Origin: a candidate division WOR-3 bacterium
GTDB lineage: Bacteria > Hydrothermota > Tepidihabitantia > B3-TA06 > JALVRC01
DNA: 44,793 bases
NCBI GenBank assembly: GCA_027025255.1
Contig: JALVRC010000046.1
Span: 1 to 44,793 of the forward strand
Reading direction: 5' to 3'
Below the pieces are notes generated by a model that saw only the letters and a program-made list of their open reading frames with translations, was not told the origin of the DNA and ran no database searches. A program made the position numbers and the translations under genes. Below, piece after piece: positions 13,020-44,793 of this stretch. Positions within the stretch are counted from its first letter, which is position 1, and each line of letters opens with the position of its first letter.

Positions 13020-13065
13020 AAAAGGTATGAAAAACTGACAAGGGTATACCCTATACCCTTGTTAG
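13020..13065 (-). terminator. intrinsic terminator after argF
   Basis: Stem 13038-13048 / 13052-13062 (ACAAGGGTATA/TATACCCTTGT, loop CCC), extendable to 13035/13065. On the minus strand it is followed by TTTTTCATACCTTTTTT. The stop codon lies in the stem. Confidence 0.65.
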
Positions 13066-13967
13066 CCTAAATAATGCATTATTGCCTTCTGTATGTGCAA
13101 TCTATTTTCAGCTTCATCCAGAACAACAGAATAAGAGGCATCCAATATATCAGATGTTATTTCTTCCCCTCTGTGCGCAGGTAAGCAATGCATTACTATT
13201 ACATCTTTATCACTGGCCTCTACAAGCTTCCTGTTAACCTGAAACTTACTGAATACCTTCTTCCTCTTCTCAGCTTCAGCTTCCTGCCCCATAGAAGCCC
13301 AAACATCTGTATAGATAACATCAGTTCCTTTTACTGCTTCAAATGGGTCATTAAAAAGTTCTATCTTTGCACCAGTATTTTTTGCTATGTTTTGTGCTTC
13401 CATTAAAAATTTACCATTTATTTCATACCCAGCCGGAGAAGCAATCCTGAAATTAGCTCCCAGAATAGCAGCTGTAAGTAAGAGAGAATTTGCCACATTA
13501 TTACCGTCTCCAATAAAAGTTAAAGTAATCCCTTCCACTCTACCTAATTTCTCCTCAATAGTTAGAAAATCTCCGTATGCCTGACAGGGATGTTCAAGAT
13601 CTGAAAGAGCATTAATTACAGGAATTGATGCATTTTCCGCAAGTTCCATAACTGTTGAGTGAGCAAATGTTCTTGCTGCAACAAAATCAACCCATCGTGA
13701 AAGATTCCTGCCAACATCAGCAACACTCTCCCTTTTCCCAAGCTGAATATCAGCGGGTGCAAGATAAACCACACTCCCTCCCGACTGAAACATAGCAACA
13801 GAAAAGGTAACCCTTGTTCTTAATGATGGTTTCTCAAACACAAGAGCCAGTGTTTTTCCTCTCATAACCTCATTATAACCCTCTTTTTTCAGCCTTTTTG
13901 CCAATGAAAATAATTCTATGAGTTCATCTTTTGTAAAATCTTTACTTGAAATAAGATCCTTTTTCAT
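13062..13967 (-). CDS. argF: ornithine carbamoyltransferase
   Basis: FEKPSLRTRVTF, HPCQ, DVWASMG, HCLPAHRGEE. Confidence 0.9.
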   Translation of the reverse strand: MKKDLISSKDFTKDELIELFSLAKRLKKEGYNEVMRGKTLALVFEKPSLRTRVTFSVAMFQSGGSVVYLAPADIQLGKRESVADVGRNLSRWVDFVAARTFAHSTVMELAENASIPVINALSDLEHPCQAYGDFLTIEEKLGRVEGITLTFIGDGNNVANSLLLTAAILGANFRIASPAGYEINGKFLMEAQNIAKNTGAKIELFNDPFEAVKGTDVIYTDVWASMGQEAEAEKRKKVFSKFQVNRKLVEASDKDVIVMHCLPAHRGEEITSDILDASYSVVLDEAENRLHIQKAIMHYLG

Positions 13968-13975
13968 GCCTCCTC

Positions 13976-16751: not shown

Positions 16752-19232
16752 TCAATTCAGGCTGTTAATAATGCTTCTTTTCACCGAAGAAAAATCTCCC
16801 TCAAAAACCCCCCTTATAACGTTTTTTCCTCCACCCTTAAAACCTAAATCCCTTAAAGTATTCAAATCTATCTTACTGTCTATACTAAAAAGAATAAACT
16901 GTTTTCCACAAACAAGCAAGTAATTAAGTCCTTTATTTTTCAATAAATCACCAATAACTATTAAGTGCTTACAGGGGAACCTTTTAACTTCCTCTATAAC
17001 CCATTTGGATTTTTTTATTTCAATAATGCTAATTTGCTTAATCCACTCCTCTGATAACAATGAAACTATACGGTAATTTTCATCTTTCATATTCTTTAGC
17101 TCACTATATAATGTATCTATCTTACGTTCTATCAAATCCTCCGTAATATTCAATCGTTGCCTTAAATGCTCTAAAAGCTTTATCTTTTCCTTTAAATACC
17201 TAAATGCTCTCTCGCCTGTATAGGCATCTATCCTCCTTATACCGGCGGAAGCACTCTCTTCTTTAATAATCTTAAAAACCCCTATTTCACCAGTATTACT
17301 TAAATGAGTTCCCCCACAAAGCTCTTTAGAAAAATCTCCTATAGAAACCATTCTAACACTATCTCCGTAAACCTCATTAAAAAAAGCCAGTGCCCCCTCT
17401 TGTCTTGCTTTTTCTAAAGTAGTAACAATTGTTTCAATATTCCAGGCCTTTCTTACAACTCTATTTATCATTTCTTCCACCTTCTCTATTTCCATTTGAC
17501 TTAAAGGTTTTAAGGATGTAAAATCAAACCTTAAACGACCAACACCAACGTATGAGCCTTCCTGTCTGACAAATTCTCCTACAACTTTTCTTAGAGCAGC
17601 CTGAAGCAGATGTGTAGCAGTATGAGCTCTTGCTATCTCCTTCCTTCTGTCAACATTAACTTCTGCTATTACACGCATATCATTGCCAATTTCCCCCTCC
17701 CATTTTCCCTTTAAAACTCGTAATTTACCTATGTAAAAGCTGTCCTCTACCTGAAAACTAAAACCATTTCCTTTTACAATCCCACTATCCCCAATCTGAC
17801 CACCTGACTCTGCATAAAAAGGTGTTTCTCTAAGGACTAAAAAACCATTGTCTCCGTCTCGCGTATATCTTATAACTTCAGTCTCAACCCTGAAATTTTC
17901 ATATCCAACAAACCTCTGGTCTACTTCTTTAACAATCTTCCATTCGTTGGTCTTAAAATCAGTTCTAATCTTTGAACGTATCCTCTGCTCCTTTAACAAT
18001 TTGTAAAAACCCTGCTCATTAAAAGCTTTACCTCTTTCCCTTAAAAGTACCTTAATAAGATCAAAGGGAAATCCATAGGTATCATAAAGCTTAAAAACAT
18101 GCATCTCATCAATATTACCTTTTTTAAAATAATCTACAAATATTTTCATACCTCTATCAAGTGTCTTTAAAAACCTCTCCTCTTCTGATTTTACTACCAG
18201 AACAACAGTATCTTCTCTCTCAACTAATTCAGGATAAGCCTCCTTCATGATATCTACAACAACAGGGACCAGCCTGAAGAGAATGGGTTTTTTAATCCCT
18301 ACCTGATATAACATACCTAAAGCCCTTCTCAGTATCCTTCTTAATACATATCCCCTCTCTTCATTTGATGGAATAACACCCTCAGAAATAGCAAAGGTTA
18401 ATGCTCTTACATGATCAATAGCAGTTCTAATATAAACAATGTGTGATAAGGAATCAAGAGAAGTCATACCCAATAATGCATTTTTTATAGGTTCAAACAA
18501 ATCTGTTTCAAAGATACTCTTTTTTTCTTGCAAAACCATAGCAAACCGTTCAAGTCCCATTCCAGTGTCAATGCCTCTATTCTTCAATGGTTTTCTTGTG
18601 CCATCCTTTTTTTGATCATACTGTGGAAAAACAAGATTCCAAATCTCCATATATCTTTCACAATCACATTGAGGCCCCTCACATCCTTCGGGGCAGGCAA
18701 ATTCTCTGCCAAAATCATAGAATATCTCGCTTGAGGGCCCGCATGCACCTGTTCCACCAGCTGGGCCCCAGAAATTTGTTTTATCTCCGAGCCTGACTAT
18801 CTTTGAAGGTTCCAACCCCAATGACAACCATATATTATATGCCTCATCATCATCATGGTGTACAGTAACCCACAATCTCTCTTTTTTTAGACCGATTACA
18901 TCTGTCAAATATTCCCATGCCCACTCTATAGCCTCCTTCTTAAAATAATCTCCAAAAGAAAAATTACCAAGCATTTCAAAAAACGTTTCGTGAGAAATGG
19001 TTCTTCCGACATTATCAATATCAGATGCCCTTAAGCACTTTTGAATGCTCGCAGCTCTCGGATATTCCGGTTTAACTTCACCTGCCCAGAACGGCTTAAA
19101 TTGTACCATCCCTGCACTTGTAAACAAAAGGCTCGGATCATTGTATGGAACAAGAAGAGAAGAAGGAAAAATCTTGTGATCTTTGCTTTTAAAAAATTCC
19201 AAAAAACTGCGTCTTATTTCAGAATGTTTCAC
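16752..19232 (-). CDS. alaS: alanine--tRNA ligase
   Basis: FTSAGMVQFKP and FEMLGNFSFGDYFK, editing-domain HxxxH (HTATHLL) and CGGTH. Confidence 0.95.
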   Translation of the reverse strand: MKHSEIRRSFLEFFKSKDHKIFPSSLLVPYNDPSLLFTSAGMVQFKPFWAGEVKPEYPRAASIQKCLRASDIDNVGRTISHETFFEMLGNFSFGDYFKKEAIEWAWEYLTDVIGLKKERLWVTVHHDDDEAYNIWLSLGLEPSKIVRLGDKTNFWGPAGGTGACGPSSEIFYDFGREFACPEGCEGPQCDCERYMEIWNLVFPQYDQKKDGTRKPLKNRGIDTGMGLERFAMVLQEKKSIFETDLFEPIKNALLGMTSLDSLSHIVYIRTAIDHVRALTFAISEGVIPSNEERGYVLRRILRRALGMLYQVGIKKPILFRLVPVVVDIMKEAYPELVEREDTVVLVVKSEEERFLKTLDRGMKIFVDYFKKGNIDEMHVFKLYDTYGFPFDLIKVLLRERGKAFNEQGFYKLLKEQRIRSKIRTDFKTNEWKIVKEVDQRFVGYENFRVETEVIRYTRDGDNGFLVLRETPFYAESGGQIGDSGIVKGNGFSFQVEDSFYIGKLRVLKGKWEGEIGNDMRVIAEVNVDRRKEIARAHTATHLLQAALRKVVGEFVRQEGSYVGVGRLRFDFTSLKPLSQMEIEKVEEMINRVVRKAWNIETIVTTLEKARQEGALAFFNEVYGDSVRMVSIGDFSKELCGGTHLSNTGEIGVFKIIKEESASAGIRRIDAYTGERAFRYLKEKIKLLEHLRQRLNITEDLIERKIDTLYSELKNMKDENYRIVSLLSEEWIKQISIIEIKKSKWVIEEVKRFPCKHLIVIGDLLKNKGLNYLLVCGKQFILFSIDSKIDLNTLRDLGFKGGGKNVIRGVFEGDFSSVKRSIINSLN

Positions 19233-19678
19233 ATAGCCTCCAATACACCTTTAATAATTTCAATACTATAACCTCTATTGTAAAGATATCTTAAAAGCTT
19301 ATCTTTCTTACTATATACTTTTTGTTTTTTTATAACAAGTTCTTTTATGGCCTCTTTTTCAAAATTTAAAAAATCTTCCTCTTTTAAACTCTCAATAAGC
19401 TCTTTTTTAAAACCTTTTTCAAAAAGAACAGATTTCAAAGCAAGCCAGCCCTTTTTCTTATATCTAAGTGTATCAATTATAACCCTTTTTATATACTCCT
19501 CCTCTTTTAAATATCCTGCTTCTATCATATATGTAATTGTTCTCTTAATCTCTTCTAATTGATATCCTTTTCTCTTCATTCTATCTCTTAGTTCTTTTTC
19601 TGTCCTATCTCTATAACTTATAAGCATTAATGCGTATTCAACAGGTTCAACCTTCCTCTTTCTCTTCATCAACTTCAA
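19229..19678 (-). CDS. recX: RecX-like regulatory protein
   Basis: Small helical-repeat protein immediately downstream of and overlapping recA ([24 protein letters not shown]). Confidence 0.7.
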
Positions 19679-20678
19679 AATAAAAATCCCTCACTTCTTT
19701 TTCAAGCTTATGCAGAACATCTTCATTATCTTTTAAATAACCAATTACACTATCCCTCCCCTGGCCTAATCGTTTTTCCTTATAAGAATACCATGCACCT
19801 GCCTTATTCAATATACCTGCCTTTACTCCCATATCAACAAGTTCCCCCAACCTATCAATACCAACACCATAAATAATATCAAATTCTGCTATCCTGAACG
19901 GTGGTGCAAGTTTATTCTTAACAATTTTTACTTTTACCCTATGGCCTTTTACCTCATCTCCCTTTTTAATCGTAACACTTTTTCGTACCTCTACCCTTAA
20001 GGAAGAATGAAATTTAAGTGCAAGACCACCAGGAGTAGTTTCAGGATTACCAAACATAACCCCTATCTTCTGCCTTATCTGATTAATAAATATAGCACAT
20101 GTATTGGATTTACTTATAACAGCAGTAAGTTTTCTTAAAGCCTGTGACATAAGACGCGCCTGCAATCCGATATGAGCATCTCCCATTTCACCATCTATCT
20201 CTGCCTTTGGAACAAGTGCAGCAACTGAATCAATTACAAATATATCCAGAGCACCACTTCTGGTTAAAATCTCCGCTATTTCAAGAGCCTGTTCTCCTGT
20301 ATCTGGTTGAGAGATTAAAAGTTCGTCTAAATCAACTCCTAAAAGTGCAGCATATGTTGGATCCAATGCATGTTCAGCATCAATGAAAGCCGCCTTGCCA
20401 CCTCCCTTCTGAGCCTCAGCTATAGCCTTTAAAGCAAGGGTTGTCTTTCCACTTGCTTCTGGCCCATAAATCTCTACAACTCGCCCTCGTGGGTAACCAC
20501 CAATACCCAATGCAACATCAAGGGCAATTGAACCTGAAGGGATTATATCTACCTGCACATGCTTTCTTTCTCCCATTTTCATAACAGAACCTTTACCAAA
20601 CTGTTTTTCTATATGCGAAATAGCACTTACAAGTGCCCTTGACTTCTCGTCTAACTTATTTTCTTTTTTTACACCCAT
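19647..20678 (-). CDS. recA: recombinase A
   Basis: Walker [10 protein letters not shown], plus [10 protein letters not shown] and [21 protein letters not shown]. Confidence 0.97.
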
Positions 20679-23826: not shown

Positions 23827-24225
23827 CTAAAAGTCAAGTAATTTTTTTAGTGTATCCATTATATCATTTTTTGTCAAAAATTGTATTTCCATCCCTTCAA
23901 TAAAAACATACTTTCTCCCATCTCTCTTCTCTGGTTCATCAACAGAAAAAATGTCAGGAATCATTCTCAATCCCAAACCCACAAAATATTTACTAAAAGA
24001 AAGTACTATAAAGAAATTGTCTTTGGCATAGTTCCTTTTTAACAGAAGAGATGTATTCACCAGATAGAGTGGTTTGTTCATATACTGTAAGACCTTAAAC
24101 ATGTCGCCTTTTTCTCTTGGTAAAGATGTAATTTCAAACTCATTAATATCCTCAACTCTAATAACATCATACTTGGGAATAGCATAAAGAGTCTCACTTA
24201 CCTCAAAAATAAATACATCAATCAT
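23827..24225 (-). CDS. CheW-like coupling protein
   Basis: FIFEVSETLYAIPKYDVIRVEDINEFEITSLP ... FFIVLSFSKYFVGLGLRMIPDI follows the CheW-domain pattern. ATGA overlap with the upstream ORF. Confidence 0.5.
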   Translation of the reverse strand: MIDVFIFEVSETLYAIPKYDVIRVEDINEFEITSLPREKGDMFKVLQYMNKPLYLVNTSLLLKRNYAKDNFFIVLSFSKYFVGLGLRMIPDIFSVDEPEKRDGRKYVFIEGMEIQFLTKNDIMDTLKKLLDF

Positions 24226-24521
24226 TGCTCACCCCTTATAATAATGAAAAATGCCTTTTTGTTCTCAAACGCAATATGTGTCAATGGGTAAGCCTTTATA
24301 AAATCCGGGATCTTAAATATTCTTTCTAATTCAATATCAACAATCCCTGCGACACTTACTCCTCTTATATAAGTATTATCCTTAAAAACTACAAAAATAT
24401 TACCTTCTCCCCTTAATAAAGGCCTTACATCAGTAGAAACCTGTTCATGAGTTTTTAAAATCTCCTCAACTTTAACCCCTATTATAATCCCCTCATCTGT
24501 TTTCACCCTTAATATCTTCAT
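24222..24521 (-). CDS. 99-aa protein, possibly a truncated CheW-like domain
   Basis: Translationally coupled to cheA and to the next ORF by 4-nt overlaps. The two ends weakly resemble the first and last strands of CheW, and the middle segment is missing. Confidence 0.3.
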   Translation of the reverse strand: MKILRVKTDEGIIIGVKVEEILKTHEQVSTDVRPLLRGEGNIFVVFKDNTYIRGVSVAGIVDIELERIFKIPDFIKAYPLTHIAFENKKAFFIIIRGEQ

Positions 24522-27115
24522 ACAGTAGCATACCTCCTTACTATAGACATCAAATCATCCCTTGTGTAAGGCTTTGTCAGAAAATCTTCAGCACCGTAAC
24601 CATAAACTTCAGTCTTATGCTGCAAACCGCTTCGAGCTGAAATTACAACAATATGTATATTCCTTGCCCATGAAATATTCCTTACGGCTTTTATAAGTTC
24701 AATTCCATTCATAACAGGCATCTCCAGATCAGTAATTACAAGATTATATTTTTTGTTCTTTATCTTTTGTAAAGCTTCTCTCCCATCAGAAGCAGTTTCT
24801 ACAGAATATTTTTCCTTTAAAAGCATTCTTGAAATAAAACGCCTAACACTTGGAGAATCATCCACAACAAGTATATCGCCCTTCTGTGAAGGTTCATCCA
24901 ATTCTTTGATATTTTCCTCGTCATAAGGAGAAACTTCTTTCTTAACCTGAATCTCTTTAATCTTTTCAAGACTTACAAGCCTTACAGGATTAAGAATTAA
25001 TACAACTCTTCCGGTACCACTTATAGTAGCACCTGAAAAATACTTTATCCTGCTAACTGGCAAAGGCAGGTATTTAATAAGTATTTGCTCCCTTTCAAGA
25101 ATATTATCCACTTTTATCCCAACTTTCCCCTCAGGATACCGAACAACTATAATAAAGCCTCTCTTACCATTCTTCTGTGAAGAATCTATCTTAAGGATAT
25201 CTGATAACCCTACAAATGGGATCAAAACATCCCTTAACCTGAAATAATGCAATCCAGCAATTTTACTAATTTTATCCTCACTAAATTCTTCCACTCGTAC
25301 AATTGACGAAATAGGGAAAAGAAATATCTGATTCCCTTCCTTTACATAAACTGCTTCACTAATACCTATTGTTATAGGAAAGCTCAAAATAATACGAATC
25401 CCTTCATTCGTTTTTGATTCTACATCTATACTTCCATTTAGCTCCTCAACAGTATTTTTCACAATATCAAGACCAACACCTCTACCTGAATAAAAACCAG
25501 CTTTATCCATTGTTGTAAATCCAGGATTAAATAAAAACTGGATTAGCTCATCGTGAGAAACCCTGCTCTCTGGAGCTAAAAGCCCTTCCTCTACTGCTTT
25601 GTCCTTTATAACATCATAATCGAGCCCTCTTCCGTCATCATTAATCTCAAGTACTACCCTGTTTATGGTAGAATAAGCAAGCAATGTAATATTCCCTATC
25701 GCTGGTTTACCTTTTTCTATTCTGTTTTCTTTAGTCTCTATTCCATGCTCTACTGCATTTTTTAAAAGATGAAGGAAAGGATCTATCATCTTATTTATAA
25801 TTCTTTTATCAATTAACGTCTCTTCGCCTTTTATTATAATATTTACCTTTTTCCCCAGTCTGTCAGCCATATCACGAATTACACGCTTGAAGCGTCCAAA
25901 TAACTGAATCACCGGGACCATCCTTATATGAAGAACCTCCTCCTGCAGCTTATTAACCAATAGTGAATATCTATTAGTCTCTTCTTCTACTACATGTAAC
26001 TTATTTTCAAAAGATGCAGTATAATCTTTAAGCCCTATAATAACATTATTCAGCCTTCTCTCAAGATTATCATAACGTGAAAAAGTTGCAAGTTCTGCAG
26101 GAGAAAGAGAACTTTTATAAAGGGTAAGTTCCCCCTTAAGGATTTCAAAACCTCTATATATTTCCATTATCTGTTTTAACAATCTTTCAACATCATTACC
26201 AAGGTTAAACAATTTACCGAATTTATTTAAAAGAAGGGATTTATTAATATTCAGCTCTGAAGAAAGGTTTAAAAGGCTGTCAAGCCTATCAAGAGGAATT
26301 CGTATATCCTTCTCTCTTACGCTTTCTACTGAAGGTTCCTCCTCTAACTGGCCGATATCCATTTCTGTCGTTTTAATATGTTCTTTAATACGCTCTAATG
26401 CTCCTATTATTTCTTGTTTAACAATACCTGTATCAAGACCATCCCTCTTTATTCTATCAATCATTCCTCTAATTAAATCAATTCCAGTAAATACTGTATT
26501 AAAATCTTCCTTAGAAAGTTGTAATTCGCCTTTCTCCATAGCTTCAAAAATATCTTCTAAAAGATGAGCCACAGAAGAAAGCTCCATAAACCCCAGCATA
26601 GCTGCTGAGCCTTTAATGGTATGTGCAATCCTCATTAATGAATGAAGATCCTCTTTTTGAAGATTATTCTCAATATCTACAATAATACTGTCAAGCTCGT
26701 TAAGATGCTCTCTTACTTCCTCCATAAATATTTCGAGTAGTTCTGAATCAATACCTTCATCCTCTTTTTCTTCTTCCATTTTTTTCTCTGTCTTTTCCTC
26801 TTTTGATACTTCCCCTTCCTTTATACCTTCAGAAACGTGTTTAAGTGGTTGAACTAACTTATTCTTAGTATCTTCTATGCTTTCAACAGTTCTTATCGTA
26901 TTTTTCAATATTTCTTTTGCCCTATCCTTTTCATTGTTGAGCAAATATTTATTAACTTCAAGTAATACATTGGTAATTTCACTGTCAAAACTATCTTTAA
27001 AACCATCTATAATAGCTAATAAAATAGAAGATATTGTTTCTTTATCAAAACCCTTTTCATCAATTAAATGAATAAGATCCTTTAATTGTATTAAAAATTC
27101 AGCTCTCTCAGTCAT
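24518..27115 (-). CDS. cheA: hybrid chemotaxis histidine kinase CheA with C-terminal receiver (ChpA/PixL-like)
   Basis: HPt HTIKGSAAMLGF, dimerisation IPLDRLDSLLNLSSEL, N box HLLKNAVEHGIE, G1 DDGRGLD, G2 SGRGVGLD, a CheW-like domain, and REC ILVVDDS...VITDLEMPVMNG...TKPY. Confidence 0.9.
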   Translation of the reverse strand: MTERAEFLIQLKDLIHLIDEKGFDKETISSILLAIIDGFKDSFDSEITNVLLEVNKYLLNNEKDRAKEILKNTIRTVESIEDTKNKLVQPLKHVSEGIKEGEVSKEEKTEKKMEEEKEDEGIDSELLEIFMEEVREHLNELDSIIVDIENNLQKEDLHSLMRIAHTIKGSAAMLGFMELSSVAHLLEDIFEAMEKGELQLSKEDFNTVFTGIDLIRGMIDRIKRDGLDTGIVKQEIIGALERIKEHIKTTEMDIGQLEEEPSVESVREKDIRIPLDRLDSLLNLSSELNINKSLLLNKFGKLFNLGNDVERLLKQIMEIYRGFEILKGELTLYKSSLSPAELATFSRYDNLERRLNNVIIGLKDYTASFENKLHVVEEETNRYSLLVNKLQEEVLHIRMVPVIQLFGRFKRVIRDMADRLGKKVNIIIKGEETLIDKRIINKMIDPFLHLLKNAVEHGIETKENRIEKGKPAIGNITLLAYSTINRVVLEINDDGRGLDYDVIKDKAVEEGLLAPESRVSHDELIQFLFNPGFTTMDKAGFYSGRGVGLDIVKNTVEELNGSIDVESKTNEGIRIILSFPITIGISEAVYVKEGNQIFLFPISSIVRVEEFSEDKISKIAGLHYFRLRDVLIPFVGLSDILKIDSSQKNGKRGFIIVVRYPEGKVGIKVDNILEREQILIKYLPLPVSRIKYFSGATISGTGRVVLILNPVRLVSLEKIKEIQVKKEVSPYDEENIKELDEPSQKGDILVVDDSPSVRRFISRMLLKEKYSVETASDGREALQKIKNKKYNLVITDLEMPVMNGIELIKAVRNISWARNIHIVVISARSGLQHKTEVYGYGAEDFLTKPYTRDDLMSIVRRYATV

Positions 27116-27117
27116 TT

Positions 27118-28854
27118 CTAAAGCTTAAATCTTTCCACGTTCTTTACAAGCTTATCAGCTAAATCTTTTAATTTTTCGGATAATTCAGTTGTCTGTTTAC
27201 TCATATCCATAGCTTTTTCTGATAAAGTTCTAATGTCTCTTGTCTGATCTGCAACCTGTTTAGTAACTTCTGCTTCTTTACGGAATTTATCAGAGGTTTC
27301 TCTGATTTTTTCAGTAGCACGTTTAACAGCTTCAAGGATTTCAACCATAACCTGTCTTGCTTCAGATGCAAATTTGGCACTATCTTCCACCTTTTTTGTT
27401 CCAACATCCATAGTCTCCACTGCTTCTCCTGTCTCAGACTGAATTCCTTTAATCAGGGTAGCAATATCCTTTGCCGCTTTTGAAGAACGTTCTGCTAATT
27501 TCCTTATTTCTTCAGCAATCACAGTAAAGCCTCTACCGGCTTCTCCAGCTCTCGCTGCTTCTGTAGCAGCATTTAACGCAAGTAAATTAGTCTGTCTTGA
27601 AATTTCCTCTATTACTCCTACTATTTCACCGATCTCAATAACAGTTTCTCCAAGCCCTTTAATTTTGACAGCGGTTTCTTCTACTATATCACGTATATTT
27701 TCAATTTCCTCAATAGAACGTACAACGTTAGTTGAACCCTTTTCAACAAGAGTAGAGGTCTCCTCTGCTGTTTTTGCAGTATTTTCAGTGTCTTCAGCAA
27801 GAGAAATAATGTCTTTTTCCAGGGCTTCCATCATATTTGAAATACCTTCTACTTTTTTCACCTGTTCAGCTGATAACTCAGTAATTTCTAATCCAGCAGC
27901 TCTAATACTCTTAACCCCTTCATCCATCCCAAAAGCTGTAGTTTTCGTTTCCTTAAACAAACTTCCAAGCTCATCCATCATCATATTGAATGCATCAGCA
28001 ATTGAACCTAACCTATCAGCAGTAACTTCAAGCCTTTTTGTAAAATCACCCATAGCAGCATCTGATATAATCTCCATAAAACGTATTAATCGTTTATTCA
28101 TTGCATCTCTCTCAGCCTCTGTTTCCACAAAACCCTTCATTTTTTCCATTGTTTCATTCAATGTACGAGCTAAGAACCCTATCTCATCCTCTCCTTCAAC
28201 CTGAGCTTTAACATCAAGATTTCCTCTTCCCATCTCCTCTGCTACCTCAATTGTTTTTGTCAAAGGCTCAATAGTATAATTGGCTACAAGATATAAAATA
28301 CCCCCTAAGACTACAAGAGCTATTAAAAATATTAAGGATGCGTTTAAGATATAACCTAAAACCAATTTTGCCGGAGGGACAAAAGCACCTACATGAATTA
28401 TTGCTTGTCTTTCGCCAATTGTTACAGGCATTGCAATATCTATTATCCCATTATCAATAGAAATCGCCTCTTTCTTAAGATTCGCTTCGTTTTTAAATGA
28501 TATCTCTTTAAAGCTTGGAGGAATTTTAAACGTATGAGCCAACAAACTACCATTTTTATCTTTTATAACTATATGCCTTATAAGCTTGGGATTATGTCTT
28601 TGAACAGCCTTTATGTGCTTCTCAACCTCATCAATTGTCATCTTATTCTCTTCTATCTCCTTTTTCAAGCTATTAACAGTTGACCTTACAATCTTCTTTC
28701 TGTTATCTAAAAGCTGATTATTGATAGCGAATGAAGAAAAGAATATAATAGTAAACCCAAAAATAGCAAGCACAACTAAAGGAATTAGAAACACCTTTGT
28801 TTTAAAACTTAAATTCGTTATCCATCTTTTTAAAAAATTACTACCTTCTGCCAT
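27118..28854 (-). CDS. methyl-accepting chemotaxis protein (2 TM, periplasmic domain, HAMP, MA domain)
   Basis: Signalling tip [61 protein letters not shown]...[21 protein letters not shown] at 28859-28865. Confidence 0.9.
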
Positions 28855-28872
28855 CTTTCCTCCTTTTAAGAT

Positions 28873-28917
28873 TTCTGCAGTACCTTTGCAAACATAGTTT
28901 GCAAAGGTACTGCAGAA
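28873..28917. repeat. perfect inverted repeat: 21-bp stem, 3-nt loop
   Basis: 28873-28893 (ttctgcagtacctttgcaaac) is the exact reverse complement of 28897-28917, with loop ata. It fills the 69-nt gap between the barrel gene stop and the MCP start. No T tract follows on the transcribed strand. Confidence 0.9.
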
Positions 28918-28923
28918 TAATAC

Positions 28924-30054
28924 CTATTTTATACTAAGGCCTACTATTAATTCAGGCCTAAGTATAGTAAACTTATCATAACCCTCATAGGCTTCGTCTG
29001 AATAAGACCTGTTATAGTATCTGAACCTGGTCATAAGCCAGGAAGGACCAACACTCACCTTGTATGCAATAAATCCGTATAAGGTATTCAAACCAACCTT
29101 TGCAGTATCCTGAAACGCATCATTGTAATATGGAACACGACTATACATACCATACTCAAATCCAAAATGGATACTACCAGGACCAACCTTTGGAGACACA
29201 AACCTGAATTTAACGAGCAACCCATTACTCTTTACAAAATCTGATACCGGAACTATATTACTGTCACTCACTTCATACATTGTATATGCAACCTGGAGAT
29301 TGGTCTTTGAACCCCTCAATCCAAGATAAAAATCAGGACCTACTGTCTTCCTGTACGCTATCTTACCGGTAGATGCTCCTAAATCCTCTTCTCCAAACAG
29401 TATCACTGGACCTATCTTAAACGTATTTGTACCTGAACTTATCCTTAATCCAAAATCAAGCATGTCATATCCATATGTTTTAACTGTATCAATCTCTGTT
29501 GAATTATTCCCTAACTCTCCCTTTGTAAGGATAAACGGATTAATCTCAATATTCTTCATAGGCTTGAACCCAAACCACAAACCATCTCCTGAAACATGCT
29601 TATAAACCTTAAAATAATCACCAACTACATTCTTATTCCAGGGATTATAGTGCAGGTCAAAAATACCACTGTTAGGAAGAGGTATCCTACCAACCTTAAA
29701 ACAGAATTTCTCATTCTTGTAAGCAATAAAAAATCTATCAAAGCCAATGTTATATCCTTTTAAAGAATCATTAAGAACTACACAGGCTGCTGGTGTTAAA
29801 AATGTCATTCTCGTTCCCATAATCCAGCCATTCTCATACTTTACATGAACGCAAACATACATAGAGCCTAACACATCAATGTCCATTGATTTCATATCTG
29901 GCAGTCTTAAAGAATCTACATCATTACCATCCTGCATAGTTTTCATTACATCTCTTAATAAAAACCATCCACCACTCTTTATATTTACTTCTGGCTCCGC
30001 AAACAAACCCCCAATAGCCCCCATTATAAGCAAAACCGTTCCTACTACCCTCAT
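28924..30054 (-). CDS. secreted, beta-strand-rich protein; predicted outer-membrane beta-barrel
   Basis: Signal peptide MRVVGTVLLIMGAIGGLFA/EPE. Aromatic-rich alternating hydrophobic strands throughout (FGFEYGMY, LYGFIAYKV, TRFRYYN). Strong SD. No family recognised. Confidence 0.4.
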   Translation of the reverse strand: MRVVGTVLLIMGAIGGLFAEPEVNIKSGGWFLLRDVMKTMQDGNDVDSLRLPDMKSMDIDVLGSMYVCVHVKYENGWIMGTRMTFLTPAACVVLNDSLKGYNIGFDRFFIAYKNEKFCFKVGRIPLPNSGIFDLHYNPWNKNVVGDYFKVYKHVSGDGLWFGFKPMKNIEINPFILTKGELGNNSTEIDTVKTYGYDMLDFGLRISSGTNTFKIGPVILFGEEDLGASTGKIAYRKTVGPDFYLGLRGSKTNLQVAYTMYEVSDSNIVPVSDFVKSNGLLVKFRFVSPKVGPGSIHFGFEYGMYSRVPYYNDAFQDTAKVGLNTLYGFIAYKVSVGPSWLMTRFRYYNRSYSDEAYEGYDKFTILRPELIVGLSIK

Positions 30055-30063
30055 TTTACCTCC

Positions 30064-30957
30064 TTATTTTTTGTTTTTTATAAGTATTCTTAAAGCCTCT
30101 TCAAGCCTCCTTATCGCCTTTGACAAAAGCCCTATTTCATCATTCTTAAGGTAAACTGGTGCTGGACCAAGTTTATCCATCTCCAATTTACTCATCCTTT
30201 CAACCCTTTTTGTATATGCCACTATAGGACGTGCTATACCAAAAGATAAAATCCATGCAAAAAACAAAGAAAGAATAAGAGCTGCAATAGCCATTATTAG
30301 GAAAAATGAATCTGCTTCTTCTCTTCTTTGTTTAAACTTCTGCATAAGTTTCCCGAAACCCAATCCCATCTCATCCATATATACAGTTAATAAAACCATA
30401 AGACCACCCTTACCAACAGGATAACTTACAAGAAAGGCTTTCTTTGACTCAGCATCATAATATCTTGAAACAGTATCATCAAATGACAAACTTTTAAGTA
30501 TCTTTACTAAGCCTGGAGTTCCTTTAGCTTTCTCTATAATGTTTTTTGTTTCCCAATCTCTATTGGGATGGACAACAACCAATATACTATCATTATCAAT
30601 AAATCTAACAAGATAAGCAAAACCATGCTTTCCCAGTCCTTCTTTAACCCATATATGTTCGTTAACAATTGTCCTTATTGTATCATTAAATGCCTGCTCT
30701 GATATTCTACCACGTTCTTTAGCTATATAGGCTATTTCAATCTCCCTTGCAATGCTTTTAGCAATCGTACTAACTCTTTCAGCCATTAATAACTTTTCAT
30801 TCTTTAAATACTGAGACTGCAAATTTAGCATCATTTTAGGAAACAAAATAAATCTCAATAAAATATAGCCTATTACTAAGAATCCTGCTGTTATTAAGAA
30901 CATAAATAAAAAAACCTTTGTAAATAATGTAATCTTTGGCTTCATATTAACCCCCAA
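30064..30957 (-). CDS. TM - single-Cache-like periplasmic domain - TM - HAMP protein with no output domain
   Basis: N-terminal TM. Periplasmic GFAYLVRFIDNDSILVVVHPN...YYDAESKKAFLVSYP...LLTVYMDEM is sCache_2-like. Second TM, then HAMP RPIVAYTKRVERMS...NDEIGLLSKAIRRLEEAL, ending about 10 aa later. Confidence 0.6.
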   Translation of the reverse strand: MGVNMKPKITLFTKVFLFMFLITAGFLVIGYILLRFILFPKMMLNLQSQYLKNEKLLMAERVSTIAKSIAREIEIAYIAKERGRISEQAFNDTIRTIVNEHIWVKEGLGKHGFAYLVRFIDNDSILVVVHPNRDWETKNIIEKAKGTPGLVKILKSLSFDDTVSRYYDAESKKAFLVSYPVGKGGLMVLLTVYMDEMGLGFGKLMQKFKQRREEADSFFLIMAIAALILSLFFAWILSFGIARPIVAYTKRVERMSKLEMDKLGPAPVYLKNDEIGLLSKAIRRLEEALRILIKNKK

Positions 30958-31813
30958 TAAGCTTTTTGATTGTCTCTTTTAATAATTTAAAAGCCTTTGC
31001 AAGTATACCAATCTCATCCGAGCTTTTAATATCAATATCTACATTAATATCACCTTTACTAAACCTATCAGCAATGCCTGTGAGTTTTTCAATAGGGGTA
31101 ACAATATTCCTTGATATATATATACCAGCTAAAGCTCCTCCAGCTATAAGAATAATCCCTATCACTATCGCAATCATTCTCAAAGAGCTAAATCCTTTTT
31201 TGTTCTGTAGAGATATATCTTCAATAGGTTTTGTAAATTGGTCCAGATAAGCAGTTGAGACAACCATATAGTTCCTGGTACCTGTATACTCACAGACCAT
31301 AAATTTATCCCTTTTTTCACCTGTTTCCTCTTGCCATTTGTAAAAACCTTCTACTCTGTCGTTATGCGGCGTTGCTTTTTTAAAGATTAGCCAGAAGTCA
31401 GGGAGCTTATCCTTAAGCTTATACATGTTAAAACCCTTGCTTAACCTCTTCTGCGGATGCCATTGCATTAAAAGAGAATCCTCTCCAAAATACTCCCATA
31501 CTGCAGTATAACCAGTTTTTAAAACAGGTTGAACAGCAATCTTTCCAAAATATTCATCATTTAACAATTCTTTTGTACTTTTCGGGAAATACGCTAAATA
31601 GTCCCTAATATGAAAACTTACTACTCTATTTGTCATTTCCACATTCCTTATTACATGGGTTTTCAAAAGCTCCTCTTCCATATTAGTTACGCTATCTACC
31701 CAGGGAAAAGCAGTTGATATTAAATAGAAAAGAAAAACACCTGCGGGAAGAACTGGAACTATAGCAAAGGCCCACAGAAATTTTGTTTTTATACTTTTAA
31801 TTTTCTCAGCCAT
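30947..31813 (-). CDS. TM - single-Cache-like periplasmic domain - TM - HAMP protein with no output domain
   Basis: YTAVWEYFGEDSLLMQWHPQ...EGFYKWQEETGEKRDKFMVCEY...VVSTAYLDQF is sCache_2-like. HAMP NIVTPIEKLTGIADRFSKGDINV...SDEIGILAKAFKLLKETI. Ends right after the HAMP. Overlaps the next gene by 11 nt. Confidence 0.65.
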   Translation of the reverse strand: MAEKIKSIKTKFLWAFAIVPVLPAGVFLFYLISTAFPWVDSVTNMEEELLKTHVIRNVEMTNRVVSFHIRDYLAYFPKSTKELLNDEYFGKIAVQPVLKTGYTAVWEYFGEDSLLMQWHPQKRLSKGFNMYKLKDKLPDFWLIFKKATPHNDRVEGFYKWQEETGEKRDKFMVCEYTGTRNYMVVSTAYLDQFTKPIEDISLQNKKGFSSLRMIAIVIGIILIAGGALAGIYISRNIVTPIEKLTGIADRFSKGDINVDIDIKSSDEIGILAKAFKLLKETIKKLIGG

Positions 31814-31822
31814 AATACCTCC

Positions 31823-32320
31823 TTAAAGACTTTTTAAAAATTCTTCTTTTAATTGAGGATCTGCTATCTCCTTTAAAATCAATTCCTTTAATTTTTGAAT
31901 TGCACTTGCAGGAACATTATCTCTTGTTAAAGACATCTCTTTTAATACATTATCAATAATTGCGGCAGCTGCAAACCCAACTGCATTCTTAAGCGCATTT
32001 TCAATCCTTTCTATATTTACATAGTCCATATCTGCTTCACTCAAATTCAAAAGCACTTTTGTACTCGGGATATCAGAATTTATACGAGAAGATTTTATAC
32101 CCTTATCTAACGTATATTGTCCTGTTTCAAACCTTAAGACCTCCTCTATAACACCCCTTCCACATTTGTCTCTAATTTCAGAACATACAATATCACCGTT
32201 ATCAAAATATATCTTATACAAATGCTCCCCCTGCTTTATAAACAAGGAACCAGTAAATCTATCTGTATATAACTTAGTTAATAAATCCCGTAGTTCCTTA
32301 TTACTTTTAAAAAAAGGCAT
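31823..32320 (-). CDS. stand-alone DUF4388 (PATAN-like) domain protein
   Basis: FTGSLFIKQGEHLYKIYFDNGDIVCSE...GRGVIEEVLRFETGQYTL matches the DUF4388 pattern. Helical C-terminal half. Confidence 0.5.
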   Translation of the reverse strand: MPFFKSNKELRDLLTKLYTDRFTGSLFIKQGEHLYKIYFDNGDIVCSEIRDKCGRGVIEEVLRFETGQYTLDKGIKSSRINSDIPSTKVLLNLSEADMDYVNIERIENALKNAVGFAAAAIIDNVLKEMSLTRDNVPASAIQKLKELILKEIADPQLKEEFLKSL

Positions 32321-32731
32321 CTATTCTCCTTTCTTTAGATATTCAAATAGATAATCAATATCTAAAACAAGATATACCTGATCTTCTTTATTAAGTATAC
32401 CCTTAAAAAATGGCGCGTCTTCATCAGGAAAAAAATTAGGAAGAGAACCCATATCCTTTTCTTCAAAATTAATAAGACTTCCTACTTCATCAGCCCTCAA
32501 AACCCATCTATCTTTTTTGTGCTCTATAAGTATATACCAGTTTCCCTTTTTATACTTAAGCTGTAAAGGATTACCAACAACAACAATTGTCCCTTCGTAA
32601 TTAATTACTCCATCGACAAAAGAAGGAGCTTGAGGTACAGGAGTAATCTCCGCTTCCTCCAGGATTTTCTCTACTTTATCCACACGCACAAGATAATTCT
32701 CTTCACCAATTTTTAATAGAATATGCTGCAT
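32321..32731 (-). CDS. cheW: CheW coupling protein
   Basis: LLKIGEENYLVRVDKVEKILEEAEITPVPQAPSFVDGVINYEGTIVVV. Confidence 0.75.
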   Translation of the reverse strand: MQHILLKIGEENYLVRVDKVEKILEEAEITPVPQAPSFVDGVINYEGTIVVVGNPLQLKYKKGNWYILIEHKKDRWVLRADEVGSLINFEEKDMGSLPNFFPDEDAPFFKGILNKEDQVYLVLDIDYLFEYLKKGE

Positions 32732-32733
32732 AG

Positions 32734-33099
32734 CTATCCAATAATTTTCTTCACTTCTGCCAAAAGAAGCTCTTTATTAACTGGTTTTGTAATATAAGCT
32801 GCTCCACCTATTTTTTTACCCCAGAATTTATCAACATCCTCACCCTTACTTGTAACAAAAATTATGGGGATATTCTTTGTTTCATCATCCTTTTTAAGCT
32901 CTCTTGCAATATTGAATCCATCTATATCAGGAAGTATTACATCAAGCAAAATAAGATCAGGATGTTTCTCAATTGCCGTATTCTTACCTTCTTTTCCGTT
33001 AAAGGCCTCCAGTAAAATTACATCAAATATTTTTAAAAAACTCTTAATCTCCTCCATTTCGGTTTTTGAATCTTCTATAATTAATATTGTTTTACTCAC
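32734..33099 (-). CDS. single-domain response regulator (CheY/PilH/PixH-like)
   Basis: ILIIEDS, LILLDVILPDIDG, FVTSK, ITKP. GTG start with AAGGAGG upstream. Confidence 0.85.
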   Translation of the reverse strand: MSKTILIIEDSKTEMEEIKSFLKIFDVILLEAFNGKEGKNTAIEKHPDLILLDVILPDIDGFNIARELKKDDETKNIPIIFVTSKGEDVDKFWGKKIGGAAYITKPVNKELLLAEVKKIIG

Positions 33100-34394
33100 C
33101 CCTTTCCTCCTTTGTTTTTTATTATTCTATAAATTTCTTCTGGTTTAAAAGGCTTTGATATGTAACCATTAGCTCCAACTAATTGAGCTTTCATCCTATC
33201 AAAAAAGCCCTTTTTAGAGGTTAAAAAATATACCTGAGTATCTTTTAATCCTGCTATCTTTCTTATTTCTCTGCATATTTCATAACCATCAATCCCTGGC
33301 ATAACAATGTCAAGAAATATTATGTCAGGGGAAAACTCTTTCGCTTTATCAATACCCAAAACCCCTTCAGAAGCCTCAATAATCATAACATCCTTAAAAT
33401 GTTTCTGGATCATTTTTTTTACTATTCTTCTTGTAACTAAACTATCATCAATAATAAGAATAGTAAAAGCTTTCTTATCTTTTAAACTTAGAATTTCTTT
33501 TTCAAGAAGAGTTTTTATCCCTCTAAAAACCGTCTCCTGTTTTAATCCTATTTTATCAGCAATATCTTCTATGTTTATTTCTTTATCTATAGCCAATAGA
33601 ATCTTTAATTCAATAGGATGCAAAACAGGCATTTCAACCTTTTTTATAGGCTTTTTATAGATAATGCCGTTGTAGTTAAGGTTTTCACAGCCCTCTTCAC
33701 ACAAAAAGTCCCTGAAAATGGTATCCTTTAATCTCATTGCTTCAAGCATTGCAAAATCAACAGGTAAATCTATCATTTTTACAGGAGGATCTTCATAATC
33801 CATTTTCCTGAAAAAAAGTTGACCTTCATGCATAAAAATCTGAAAAAAAGCGTTTTGTCCTTCCTGGATGGAAGATTCTGCATATTCAAGAACTCCCTCC
33901 TGTAAGAAAAACCGAACGTTAATACCTGGCAAATTCACAAAGAAAACACCGCTTATCTTATTCTGAGAACACATCTCCATATAGGAAGCAAAATCATCAT
34001 TACCAATCTCTCCACTTATATACTGTTCATCTTCCATTATGTTCTTTACAAGTAAACTAAGTTCAGAAATTGTAAAAGGCTTCTCAAGTATATAACCAAT
34101 TCCGAGATTGGATGCTTCTTTCTTTATATTTTCATCCAAAAAACCACTTATCAATATTATAGGGATATCCTTCTTGAAACTCCGTACTTTCCTTATAAAT
34201 TCAGTCCCATACATATCTGGAAGCCTATAATCAACTATCAATAGCTTTATTTGAAATCTTTTTAACATGAAATATTGTATTGCCTCTTCACCGCTCTGGG
34301 CAGAAATAATCTTATATCCCTTATTTGTAAGATAAGATGTATACATTTTTCTTATATATGATTCGTCATCAACAAGAAGGATTTCTTCAGCCAT
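33096..34394 (-). CDS. REC - DUF4388/PATAN - wHTH-like - REC response regulator (PatA/PixG-related)
   Basis: N-terminal REC (ILLVDDES, LLIVDYRLPDMYG, ILEKPF). Centre ISGVFFVNLPGINVRFFLQEGVLEYAES is DUF4388-like. LHPIELKILLAIDKEINIEDIADKIGLKQETVFRGIKTLLEKEIL is wHTH-like. C-terminal REC (ILIIDDS, IIFLDIVMPGIDG, LTSK, ISKPF). Confidence 0.7.
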   Translation of the reverse strand: MAEEILLVDDESYIRKMYTSYLTNKGYKIISAQSGEEAIQYFMLKRFQIKLLIVDYRLPDMYGTEFIRKVRSFKKDIPIILISGFLDENIKKEASNLGIGYILEKPFTISELSLLVKNIMEDEQYISGEIGNDDFASYMEMCSQNKISGVFFVNLPGINVRFFLQEGVLEYAESSIQEGQNAFFQIFMHEGQLFFRKMDYEDPPVKMIDLPVDFAMLEAMRLKDTIFRDFLCEEGCENLNYNGIIYKKPIKKVEMPVLHPIELKILLAIDKEINIEDIADKIGLKQETVFRGIKTLLEKEILSLKDKKAFTILIIDDSLVTRRIVKKMIQKHFKDVMIIEASEGVLGIDKAKEFSPDIIFLDIVMPGIDGYEICREIRKIAGLKDTQVYFLTSKKGFFDRMKAQLVGANGYISKPFKPEEIYRIIKNKGGKG

Positions 34395-34400
34395 AATTAA

Positions 34401-34428
34401 ACTATATATACATTTTAAAGTATGTCAA
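34401..34428 (-). promoter_or_regulatory. sigma70-type promoter TTGACA-N16-TATAGT, 6 nt before ATG 34394 (leaderless geometry)
   Basis: Minus strand: TTGACA 34428-34423, TATAGT 34406-34401. No SD. Confidence 0.5.
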
Positions 34429-39568: not shown

Positions 39569-39573
39569 CCTCT

Positions 39574-39645
39574 GGCCCCATCGTCTAATGGTTAGGACAT
39601 CACTCTTTCAAGGTGAAGATACGGGTTCGACTCCCGTTGGGGCTA
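39574..39645 (+). tRNA. tRNA-Glu (UUC)
   Basis: Folded by hand: acceptor GGCCCCA/TGGGGCT, D stem GTCT/GGAC, anticodon stem TCACT/GGTGA with loop CTTTCAA, T arm ACGGG-TTCGACT-CCCGT. No encoded CCA. Confidence 0.9.
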
Positions 39646-39653
39646 TTTGACAC

Positions 39654-41246: not shown

Positions 41247-41314
41247 CAATTTCCAAGCCTATTTGACATGTTTTTTATTTACATAAATAGTTATAGTTTG
41301 ATTGACTGAAAAAA

Positions 41315-41387
41315 CGGGGAGTAGCGCAGTGGCAAGCGCACCTGGTTCGGGACCAGGGGGTCGCTGGTTCAAATCCAGTCTCCCCGA
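41315..41387 (+). tRNA. tRNA-Pro (CGG)
   Basis: Acceptor CGGGGAG/CTCCCCG, D stem GCGC/GCGC, anticodon stem CCTGG/CCAGG with loop TTCGGGA, T arm GCTGG-TTCAAAT-CCAGT. No encoded CCA. Confidence 0.9.
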
Positions 41388-41397
41388 TACTTTTATT

Positions 41398-41910
41398 ATG
41401 AAAAAACTTAAGACCTTAATTAGTAAAGAAGATATTGTCTCTCGAGTCAAAGAATTGGCATATAATATTAACAAAGACTACAAAAACAAGGATTTGCATA
41501 TAATTGGTGTTCTTAAAGGAAGTTTTATATTCCTTTCCGATCTTATGAGGAAACTTAACCTGAATCCAACAGTTGATTTTATCATGTTAAAGAGCTACGC
41601 AGGGGAACAAAGTACGGAAAATGTAAAAATCCTTCATGATATATCAATGGAGGTAAAAGGCAAAGATATCTTAATTGTTGAGGACATTGTTGATACAGGG
41701 ATAACACTTGAATTTCTAATAAATCTCCTCCATGCTAAATCTCCAAACAGTATAAAAGTCATAACCTTGCTTGACAAACCTTCTAAAAGGAAAATAAACA
41801 TACCTGTTGATTATGTTGGATTTAAAATTAAAGATAGATTTGTAGTTGGGTATGGGCTTGATTTTAATGAACAGTACAGACAACTACCATTTATTGGCTA
41901 CTTTGAATGA
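41398..41910 (+). CDS. hpt: hypoxanthine phosphoribosyltransferase
   Basis: PRPP motif ILIVEDIVDTGITL, GVLKGSF, C-terminal FVVGYGLDFNEQYRQLPFIG. The track ORF from 41302 reads through the tRNA, so the first credible start is ATG 41398. Confidence 0.9.
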   Translation: MKKLKTLISKEDIVSRVKELAYNINKDYKNKDLHIIGVLKGSFIFLSDLMRKLNLNPTVDFIMLKSYAGEQSTENVKILHDISMEVKGKDILIVEDIVDTGITLEFLINLLHAKSPNSIKVITLLDKPSKRKINIPVDYVGFKIKDRFVVGYGLDFNEQYRQLPFIGYFE

Positions 41911-44689: not shown

Positions 44690-44696
44690 AATTAAA

Positions 44697-44770: not shown

Positions 44771-44793
44771 ACATTATTATATACATATTATAG

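Follow-up and report, generated by a model that had tools for sequence, protein, structure and literature searches.

The window analysed here, the 44,793 nucleotides of contig JALVRC010000046.1 from a candidate division WOR-3 bacterium, carries on its minus strand, from 34394 down to 23827, a tightly packed chemosensory (che) gene cluster of eleven open reading frames (ORFs). The reading that we favour, with some reserve, is that this cluster encodes a complete, methylation-independent chemosensory pathway of PATAN/type IV pilus (Tfp)-like kind in one operon of a low-GC bacterium that bears lipopolysaccharide (LPS) and is related to candidate division WOR-3. The gene order is a response regulator of REC-PATAN-winged helix-turn-helix (wHTH)-REC architecture, CheY, CheW, a PATAN-only protein, two paralogous proteins of transmembrane (TM)-sensor-TM-HAMP architecture (here named CH1 and CH2), a secreted ORFan, a methyl-accepting chemotaxis protein (MCP), a CheA-REC hybrid kinase, a 99-aa ORFan and a degenerate CheW (Table 1).

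Composition and packing of the cluster

An earlier description of this DNA, made from the letters alone (the sequence-only reading), had proposed these eleven genes as one functional unit. All of the ORFs are present where it had placed them, and the packing agrees with a single unit. In operon order the junctions are -4, +2, 0, +9, -11, +9, +69, +2, -4 and -4 nt, so that all are overlaps or gaps of at most 9 nt except for one gap of 69 nt. Shine-Dalgarno (SD) sites stand before most genes, with strong AAGGAGG-like motifs before CheY, the PATAN-only gene, CH1, the secreted ORFan, the MCP and the 99-aa ORF. The junction of -11 nt between CH1 and CH2 becomes +1 nt if CH2 starts at the ATG at 30945, which is probably its true start, since a 293-aa gene call begins there and no SD precedes the upstream TTG.

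Table 1. Coordinates of the cluster genes, of associated sequence elements and of other features of the window
Feature	Coordinates	Strand	Description
Response regulator	33096..34394	-	432 aa; REC-PATAN-wHTH-REC (Pfam; wHTH probable); PixG/PatA-like position; candidate output protein
CheY-like receiver	32734..33099	-	121 aa; single-domain; REC 78 bits; PilH/PixH position
CheW adaptor	32321..32731	-	136 aa; CheW 68.3 bits; PilI/PixI position
PATAN-only protein	31823..32320	-	165 aa; stand-alone PATAN (DUF4388), 29.9 bits (cut-off 25)
CH1	30947..31813	-	288 aa; output-less receptor; TM ~10-39, ~165-aa periplasmic sensor, TM ~205-238, HAMP
CH2	30064..30957	-	293-297 aa; CH1 paralogue; same TM-sensor-TM-HAMP architecture
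Secreted ORFan (the earlier "barrel")	28924..30054	-	376 aa; signal-peptide-like hydrophobic N-terminus; Gly- and aromatic-rich
Inverted repeat	28873..28917	-	Perfect, 21 bp, 3-nt loop; in the 69-nt gap between ORFan and MCP, the sole sizeable intergenic gap
MCP	27118..28854	-	578 aa; transmembrane chemoreceptor; short periplasmic domain, two tandem HAMPs, 40H MCPsignal, no C-terminal tail
CheA-REC hybrid kinase	24518..27115	-	865 aa; ~120-aa N-terminal extension, Hpt, dimerisation region, HATPase_c, CheW-like P5, REC
99-aa ORFan	24222..24521	-	ATGA overlaps on both sides; preceded by SD TAAGGAGGT
Degenerate CheW-like protein	23827..24225	-	132 aa; ChpC position
Promoter-like site	34401..34428	-	TTGACA-16-TATAGT; 11/12 consensus matches; ends 6 nt before first-gene ATG
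Cluster flanks			Housekeeping genes; upstream thi4, rhomboid protease gene, ispF; downstream glmM, glmS, recA, recX, alaS
skp(OmpH)-lpxD-lpxC-fabZ-lpxA cluster	9351-12979	-	
tRNA-Pro (CGG)	41315-41387		Overlaps 5' end of the longest phosphoribosyltransferase ORF (41302-41910)
tRNA-Glu	39573-39646		
tRNA-Met	44696-44771		

Backbone genes and gene order

Pfam finds two REC domains in the regulator (E 3.6e-48) and a PATAN/DUF4388 domain that scores 24.4 bits within the whole protein and 27.9 bits as an isolated segment (cut-off 25). The PATAN domain (residues 128-224) is followed by the C-terminal REC (residues 312-425), and the domain pair of PatA-type regulators is thus present, in a variant architecture. 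Thirteen families of the HTH clan converge on residues ~262-305, every one below its own cut-off, and this segment is probably a winged HTH. Both receivers retain the acidic pocket, the phospho-acceptor Asp, the Thr/Ser and the Lys. The single-domain CheY is 37% identical to the second receiver of the regulator.

The last gene product appears to be a degenerate relative of CheW, with a Pfam CheW score of 22.2 bits (just under the cut-off of 23.5), an hhalign E of 0.0026 (probability 11%, 108 columns) and a phmmer E of 3e-4 to the operon's own CheW. The GxxNxRG motif is missing from its aligned region. Gammaproteobacterial Tfp-class systems such as Pseudomonas Chp have a second CheW-like adaptor, ChpC, without a CheA interface (PMC13599512), and by analogy the trailing protein would fit a ChpC-like auxiliary component of the baseplate that lacks this interface.

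The likeness of the backbone to pixGHIJL and to pilGHIJ-chpA-chpC, on which the sequence-only reading had relied, is upheld by gene order. The backbone is collinear with PATAN-REC, CheY, CheW, MCP and CheA in a pix/tax-type locus of Thermosynechococcus (L068), and with PilG, PilH, PilI, PilJ and ChpA in Pseudomonas (L019) and Lysobacter (L023). By comparison with these three loci, the window has the Tfp-class succession of regulator, CheY, CheW, MCP and CheA-REC, with two response regulators. Loci around the best CheA matches (L004-L007) run response regulator, CheY, CheW, MCP, CheA-REC, CheB, CheW, response regulator, and the best genome locus, from Acidobacteriota (L008), runs CheY, CheW, MCP, CheR, CheA-REC, CheB, CheW, CheW, REC-PATAN. 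All five are in Pil-Chp order and collinear with the window backbone.

No cheR, cheB or phosphatase gene lies in the operon, just outside it or elsewhere on the 44.8-kb contig, as had been surmised; a scan of the ORFs of at least 120 aa (all but three of them) found no CheR, CheB, CheC/D/X/Z, pil or flagellar domain. Their absence had been taken for an oddity, a view that does not hold. Cyanobacterial Tfp-class systems have no CheR/CheB and begin with a PatA-type regulator (PMC11181946). Moreover, neither gene was found within 10 kb in 29 of the 42 CheA-REC loci with full flanks, as counted by single-seed phmmer, a search of limited sensitivity.

Chemoreceptor and adaptation

The MCP aligns with the 550-aa aromatic acid chemoreceptor of PDB 6s18 over 256 residues with zero gaps. 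Each of its arms is two heptads longer than those of Tsr, a 36H receptor, and shorter than those of TM1143, a 44H receptor, and 141 residues (about 20 heptads) run from the hairpin tip to the C-terminus. The MCP is therefore a 40H receptor without a tethering tail. Three positions, which we take to be methylation residues of Tsr, correspond in one pairwise alignment to EQ, EG and EA, and to the extent that a single alignment can tell, these sites and the missing tail would be in keeping with an unmethylated receptor. The features of methylation-dependent adaptation were thus not found, neither in the MCP sites nor as cheR or cheB on the contig; such genes may lie elsewhere in the genome. Heptad class was tried as a discriminator between system classes and dropped, because PilJ and Helicobacter pylori TlpB both belong to the 40H class (PMC13599512), which is therefore not informative here.

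The hybrid kinase

When CheA is aligned with 17 relatives, its Hpt His165 and the D752, D753, D796 and K848 of its receiver fall in invariant columns. The protein is very divergent, being at most 37% identical to any database protein, with a best match among 5.8e9 clusters of 33-34% identity over ~69% of its length. A scan of a genome collection with the CheA alignment yielded 80 CheA-REC loci, and the GRGVGLDIV and DLEMPVMNG motifs of the window CheA depart from the patterns used in that scan. In a crude neighbour-joining tree of the P3-P5 core from the 80 loci, which has short deep nodes and carries no support values, the window CheA sits on a long branch beside a locus from a Calditrichaeota metagenome-assembled genome (MAG; L015). 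Right after the 1795-aa CheA of that locus, at 12868-14406, lies a gene for a beta-helix protein with a TonB C-terminal domain; L015 thus has another envelope protein attached to its che locus.

Genes inserted into the backbone

The PATAN-only protein belongs to a known type. More than 8000 DUF4388 proteins have been described, most with no other domain or with a single REC, the PATAN-only form being the commonest (bioRxiv 10.1101/2021.06.11.447907). The last ~70 residues of the window protein match nothing in Pfam or the PDB. An iterated profile with Pfam confirmation found PATAN in seven other, non-cyanobacterial CheA-REC loci, as REC-PATAN genes in L008, L009, L012, L033 and L050 and as proteins without REC in L039 and L048. 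These loci span Acidobacteriota, Rokubacteria, Chloroflexia, an actinobacterial MAG and others, and the REC-PATAN domain order in L008, L009, L033 and L050 is the reverse of that in cyanobacterial PatA.

CH1 has a HAMP domain by Pfam (46 bits) and ends six residues after it, while its weak matches to Cache (E 1.6e-3 and 5.2e-3) stay under the cut-off. CH2 has no Pfam match, resembles the WalK N-terminus over residues 16-290, aligns with CH1 across the full length (phmmer E ~1e-10, 26% identity) and ends a few residues past the region aligned to the CH1 HAMP. The best PDB match of the combined CH1 and CH2 profile is full-length Archaeoglobus fulgidus Af1503 (4cq4; E 4.3e-7), in an alignment that reaches into the sensor, and both proteins have the architecture of Af1503-like receptors, namely TM, sensor, TM and HAMP with no effector after it. 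Homology of the sensors to that of Af1503 is not claimed, because sensor fragments gave only a weak pairwise match (E 5e-4), the sensor-only profile of CH1 and CH2 found nothing in the PDB at E<=10, and two metagenome scans with CH1/CH2/Af1503-type sensor motifs were empty.

Output-less HAMP receptors are a described architecture, and the Af1503 family has been described as an archaeal one, coupled to STAC (Af1502-like) proteins of 60-90 aa and to transport genes (PMC4834066). There is no space beside CH1 or CH2 for a STAC ORF, a kind of protein that sequence searches, according to the same authors, easily miss (PMC4834066). Two candidates for a STAC-like partner, the C-terminus of the PATAN-only protein and the 99-aa ORF, were set aside, as neither matched a Pfam family or a PDB chain, 5a1q (Af1502) included.

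Among the 80 other loci exactly one, L012, holds a HAMP-only receptor. This locus of a Desulfuromonadaceae MAG (JAMOOS010000020.1, 6605-15219) encodes CheY, a 182-aa ORF, a Tll0287-HAMP-only protein, REC-PATAN, Hpt-CheW, CheA-REC and MCP, has no CheB or CheR within 10 kb, and shows, independently of the window, a PATAN regulator and an output-less receptor side by side among che genes. A TRAP transporter is encoded upstream of the L012 cluster.

The secreted ORFan has an outer-membrane-protein-like composition (10.6% Gly, 14.6% aromatic residues), a strong AAGGAGG SD and codon usage in line with known genes. Apart from its own 90%-identity cluster (representative P0005), no homologue came up among k-mer-seeded candidates from the 5.8e9 clusters or by a full HMMER search of 1.84e9 representatives, and it has no Pfam, NCBIfam or PDB match. 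Its beta-moment count is not above that of shuffled sequences, and a single-sequence AlphaFold2 (AF2) model was unusable (mean predicted local distance difference test, pLDDT, 29.6). It is possibly an envelope protein; a beta-barrel fold is a guess.

The 99-aa ORFan is translationally coupled on both sides. It showed no similarity to Pfam families, PDB chains or CheW profiles, and its AF2 single-sequence model was likewise unusable (pLDDT 40). The idea that it is half a CheW was rejected (hhalign probability 0.4%). CH1, CH2, the PATAN-only protein, the 99-aa ORF and the CheW-like protein all form singleton clusters at 90% identity. The GC content, GC at third codon positions (GC3) and codon usage of the inserts are similar to those of neighbouring genes; there is therefore no sign of recent foreign insertion, and on GC and GC3 the idea of a foreign origin of the inserts was dropped.

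The labels that the sequence-only reading gave to these genes fared unevenly. Those of the PATAN-only protein and of the HAMP in CH1 stand, "Cache" is sub-threshold in CH1 and absent in CH2, and "outer-membrane beta-barrel" was applied to a protein without a homologue or a usable model. It had also set three genes between the cheW side and the MCP outside every described Che class; of the inserts, PATAN-only and sensor-HAMP-only proteins have precedents (L039, L048, Af1503, L012), while the secreted ORFan and the 99-aa ORF match nothing.

A possible signalling scheme

For the phosphotransfer routes, the pilus output and the roles of the accessory genes, we infer the following scheme. The 40H transmembrane MCP, CheW and the CheA-REC hybrid would form the signalling array, in which CheA would phosphorylate its own receiver, CheY and both receivers of the PATAN regulator. 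The single-domain CheY may act as a PilH/PixH-like antagonist or phosphate sink and the REC-PATAN-wHTH-REC regulator as the PixG/PatA-like output, with adaptation and reset running through receivers as sinks, in place of CheR/CheB methylation. In Synechocystis, only phosphorylated PixG is at the leading pole, PixH antagonises PixG, and the PATAN domain alone binds PilB1 and PilC, which is enough to switch direction (PMC11181946; bioRxiv 10.1101/2021.06.11.447907). By analogy with cyanobacteria, the regulator and the free PATAN protein could both pass the output, by way of their PATAN domains, to a motor of the type IV pilus kind or to polarity machinery, and the wHTH might add a transcriptional branch. 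The free PATAN protein, CH1 and CH2, the secreted ORFan, the 99-aa ORFan and the degenerate ChpC-like CheW would be lineage-specific accessories.

Within this scheme CH1 and CH2 would probably form a heterodimeric co-sensor, which could modulate the MCP laterally in the membrane or hold and release the free PATAN protein, whose gene is the next one upstream. Analogies are available for both routes: the Synechocystis photoreceptor PixD holds PixE and lets it go (PMC11181946), and sensory rhodopsin II with HtrII serves as the model of lateral modulation. It nevertheless seems improbable that the output-less receptors, possibly paired in a heterodimer and with the envelope ORFan possibly feeding them, provide a second, non-phosphotransfer input of this sort, which would answer a periplasmic signal by acting on the free PATAN protein or on the MCP.

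Alternative explanations

Several observations weigh against a Tfp-like assignment. By Pfam the CheA has a single Hpt (residues 125-223), so that it is not the long multi-Hpt kinase of the Tfp class; it has one Hpt in 865 aa, as against 1300-2300 aa for the ChpA and cyanobacterial kinases in the compared loci. In the crude tree it falls outside the proteobacterial ChpA and cyanobacterial clades. The smallest raw (BLOSUM) distances of its core are to F3-like CheAY kinases of Campylobacterota (L047, L042, L061) and to a Bacillota kinase, and other near-full-length relatives are Wsp-like (L091, REC-GGDEF) or F3-like (L093, CheV-CheAY-CheW). Overall, its distances to F3-like, Wsp-like and Tfp kinases are much the same. 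In addition, the extra N-terminal REC and the wHTH set the regulator apart from the PatA architecture, the contig carries no pil gene, and no evolutionary evidence ties the inserts to the pathway, because there are no relatives to compare.

The likeliest of the alternatives is that the four or five non-canonical genes (the PATAN-only gene, CH1, CH2, the secreted ORFan and the 99-aa ORF) are passengers, lineage-specific genes that came to lie in the operon and are co-transcribed but outside signalling, and that the che backbone works alone. We regard this as possible, though not as the likelier course. The 376-aa ORFan has no homologue anywhere searched, and in the 84 other loci no homologue of this ORFan, the 99-aa ORF, the CheW-like protein, CH2 or the PATAN-only protein was found, CH1 giving matches at HAMP level only. 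The strong hairpin after the ORFan gene could uncouple expression of the operon halves, and the partners of Af1503-like receptors elsewhere are transporters and STAC proteins, with no link to che genes (PMC4834066). On the other hand, the inserts are set off by overlaps or by gaps of 0 to 9 nt and have SD sites, which points to their translation together with the che genes, GC and codon usage are like those of the neighbours, and signalling domains occur in three of them (one PATAN, two HAMP). Moreover, the sensor-HAMP-only gene of the independent che locus L012 adjoins its REC-PATAN gene.

A second alternative, somewhat unlikely in our view, is a system of the alternative cellular function type, in which the array controls a non-motility function, for example transcription through the wHTH or envelope or exopolysaccharide production, and PATAN is an interaction module unrelated to pili. 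The wHTH embedded in the main regulator suggests this, as do the position of CheA outside the Tfp clades and the presence of Wsp-like L091 (REC-GGDEF) and of L092 (TPR-REC) among its near-full-length CheA-REC relatives. In the neighbourhood, glmM and glmS begin 23 nt downstream with no terminator between, and a GT2 glycosyltransferase gene lies upstream on the opposite strand. The glm genes are, however, housekeeping neighbours with promoter-like sites of their own, no HTH match reaches its Pfam cut-off, and neither GGDEF nor any other enzymatic output domain is encoded in the cluster. The gene order and two-regulator layout are those of Pix/Pil-Chp, and what little is known of PATAN proteins points to pilus machinery, DNA binding by PatA-type regulators being thought unlikely (bioRxiv 10.1101/2021.06.11.447907).

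Ordinary flagellar F-class chemotaxis with a CheAY-type kinase, as in Campylobacterota F3 systems, is very improbable: the core distances to Campylobacterota CheAY, a Nautilia hybrid kinase among the top protein matches and the 40H class of H. pylori TlpB (PMC13599512) speak for it, but identity to F3 kinases is only ~33%, equal to that to non-F relatives, the cluster has no CheV (CheW-REC), neither cluster nor contig has flagellar or CheZ/CheC/CheD genes, and PATAN proteins and a pilG-H-I-J-chpA-like order are found in place of the CheV-CheAY-CheW arrangement of F3-like loci L061 and L093.

Transcription signals and genomic context

The promoter-like site upstream of the regulator gene is a consensus match only, since a promoter scan found no more such sites than in shuffled sequence. 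The first che gene (ATG at 34394) has no SD sequence and the site lies 6 nt from the ATG, so a leaderless start is possible, and the operon mRNA may be leaderless at its first gene. The inverted repeat between the ORFan and MCP genes is unique in the window and the strongest of the contig; as RNA it would fold with a free energy of -35 kcal/mol (z = -9.8), and no U-tract follows. Possible roles are those of a stabiliser within the operon, a partial terminator or an operator, and it may set unequal expression of the two operon halves.

The skp/lpxD/lpxC/fabZ/lpxA genes on the contig indicate a diderm organism with an LPS outer membrane. At 241 aa the LpxC ORF falls short of its 268-position profile. 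Many sequences of candidate division WOR-3 match RecA at 69-73% identity, a tentative sign of affiliation, and the order recA-recX-alaS (19229-20678 in the window) is common to a WOR-3-like contig from Guaymas Basin (L089/L090) with a RecA 73% identical. The Guaymas Basin contig has no che cluster beside recA, and its region upstream of recA differs, so the position of the che operon beside glmM, glmS and recA is not conserved. The top RecA match, P0133, was discarded for synteny, as it comes from an unrelated Firmicute-like contig encoding SpoVS and SpoIIP. Parts of the cluster recur on short contigs from three further samples, two of them (L001, L002) with DNA 100% identical to the window and one (L003) with a single mismatch; being near-identical they represent the same strain and hold no comparative signal, so that ratios of nonsynonymous to synonymous substitution cannot be obtained for the ORFans. 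Elsewhere on the contig, tRNA-Pro overlaps the 5' end of the phosphoribosyltransferase ORF, whose true start therefore lies further downstream, and two ORFs, 1641-3260 (+; 539 aa) and 7651-8049 (-; 132 aa), gave no match to Pfam at E<=1e-4.

Significance and comparison with known systems

Non-flagellar chemosensory systems are poorly understood outside Pseudomonas, Myxococcus and cyanobacteria, and with this operon the PATAN-type, methylation-free design reaches into a candidate phylum without a cultured model. Most of its single "non-canonical" features are already known, and the comparison with Pix and Pil-Chp is apt for the gene order and the PATAN regulator. New are the REC-PATAN-wHTH-REC architecture of the regulator, the occurrence of two Af1503-like receptors without output domains in a che operon of a bacterium, the two ORFans that stand in translational register with the che genes, and the strong divergence of a CheA from a candidate phylum. 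Comparison with other loci lends no support to the ORFan and mini genes.

We know of no report that identifies the signalling output of Af1503-type receptors since the first HAMP structure. The presence of a free PATAN protein and a chemoreceptor array beside CH1 and CH2, and the similar pairing in L012, suggest a testable partner for such receptors. If they do supply a second input, the operon would place Af1503-type receptors in a functional context for the first time and would define a "split" input architecture for chemosensory arrays. The main value of the operon may lie in this possible context for output-less HAMP receptors, and the claim is a modest one.

Af1503 itself (PDB 4cq4, 2l7h) shares with CH1 and CH2 the succession of TM, extracytoplasmic sensor, TM and a HAMP that is the sole cytosolic part. 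Its family has been described as archaeal and associated with STAC and transporters (PMC4834066), whereas the window has two bacterial paralogues in a che operon, with no STAC-like partner detected beside them.

The L012 locus resembles the window in having CheY, a 293-aa sensor (Tll0287)-HAMP-only protein, REC-PATAN, CheA-REC and MCP without CheB or CheR. It differs in gene order and in sensor type and has no ORFan, mini ORF or second HAMP-only paralogue; its HAMP-only protein matches CH1 at the level of HAMP only, and the proteins of the two loci are not close relatives.

In Pseudomonas aeruginosa, ChpA carries multiple Hpt domains, and the organism has PilK (CheR) and ChpB (CheB). Pseudomonas ChpA measures ~1900-2400 aa against the 865 aa of the window CheA, with an identity of 27-29%, and Pseudomonas PilG has no PATAN domain, unlike the window regulator. 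The Pil-Chp system shares with the window a 40H receptor, a CheA-REC hybrid kinase and the same gene order, including a trailing CheW-like protein at the ChpC position (L019; PMC13599512).

Cyanobacterial Tax/Pix systems differ from the window in several respects. Their regulator is PATAN-REC, as against REC-PATAN-wHTH-REC, the Pix receptor is a photoreceptor, as against a plain transmembrane 40H MCP, and the host is phototrophic, whereas that of the window is a non-phototrophic WOR-3 relative. The CheA of the window is short, with one Hpt, and is not grouped with the cyanobacterial kinases, and the window has four additional genes between cheW and the MCP gene as well as the 99-aa mini ORF. 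Nevertheless, pixGHIJL has the same order of PATAN regulator, CheY, CheW, MCP and CheA-REC as the window (L068), both have two response regulators and no CheR/CheB (PMC11181946), and in both the PATAN domain is the likely output module.

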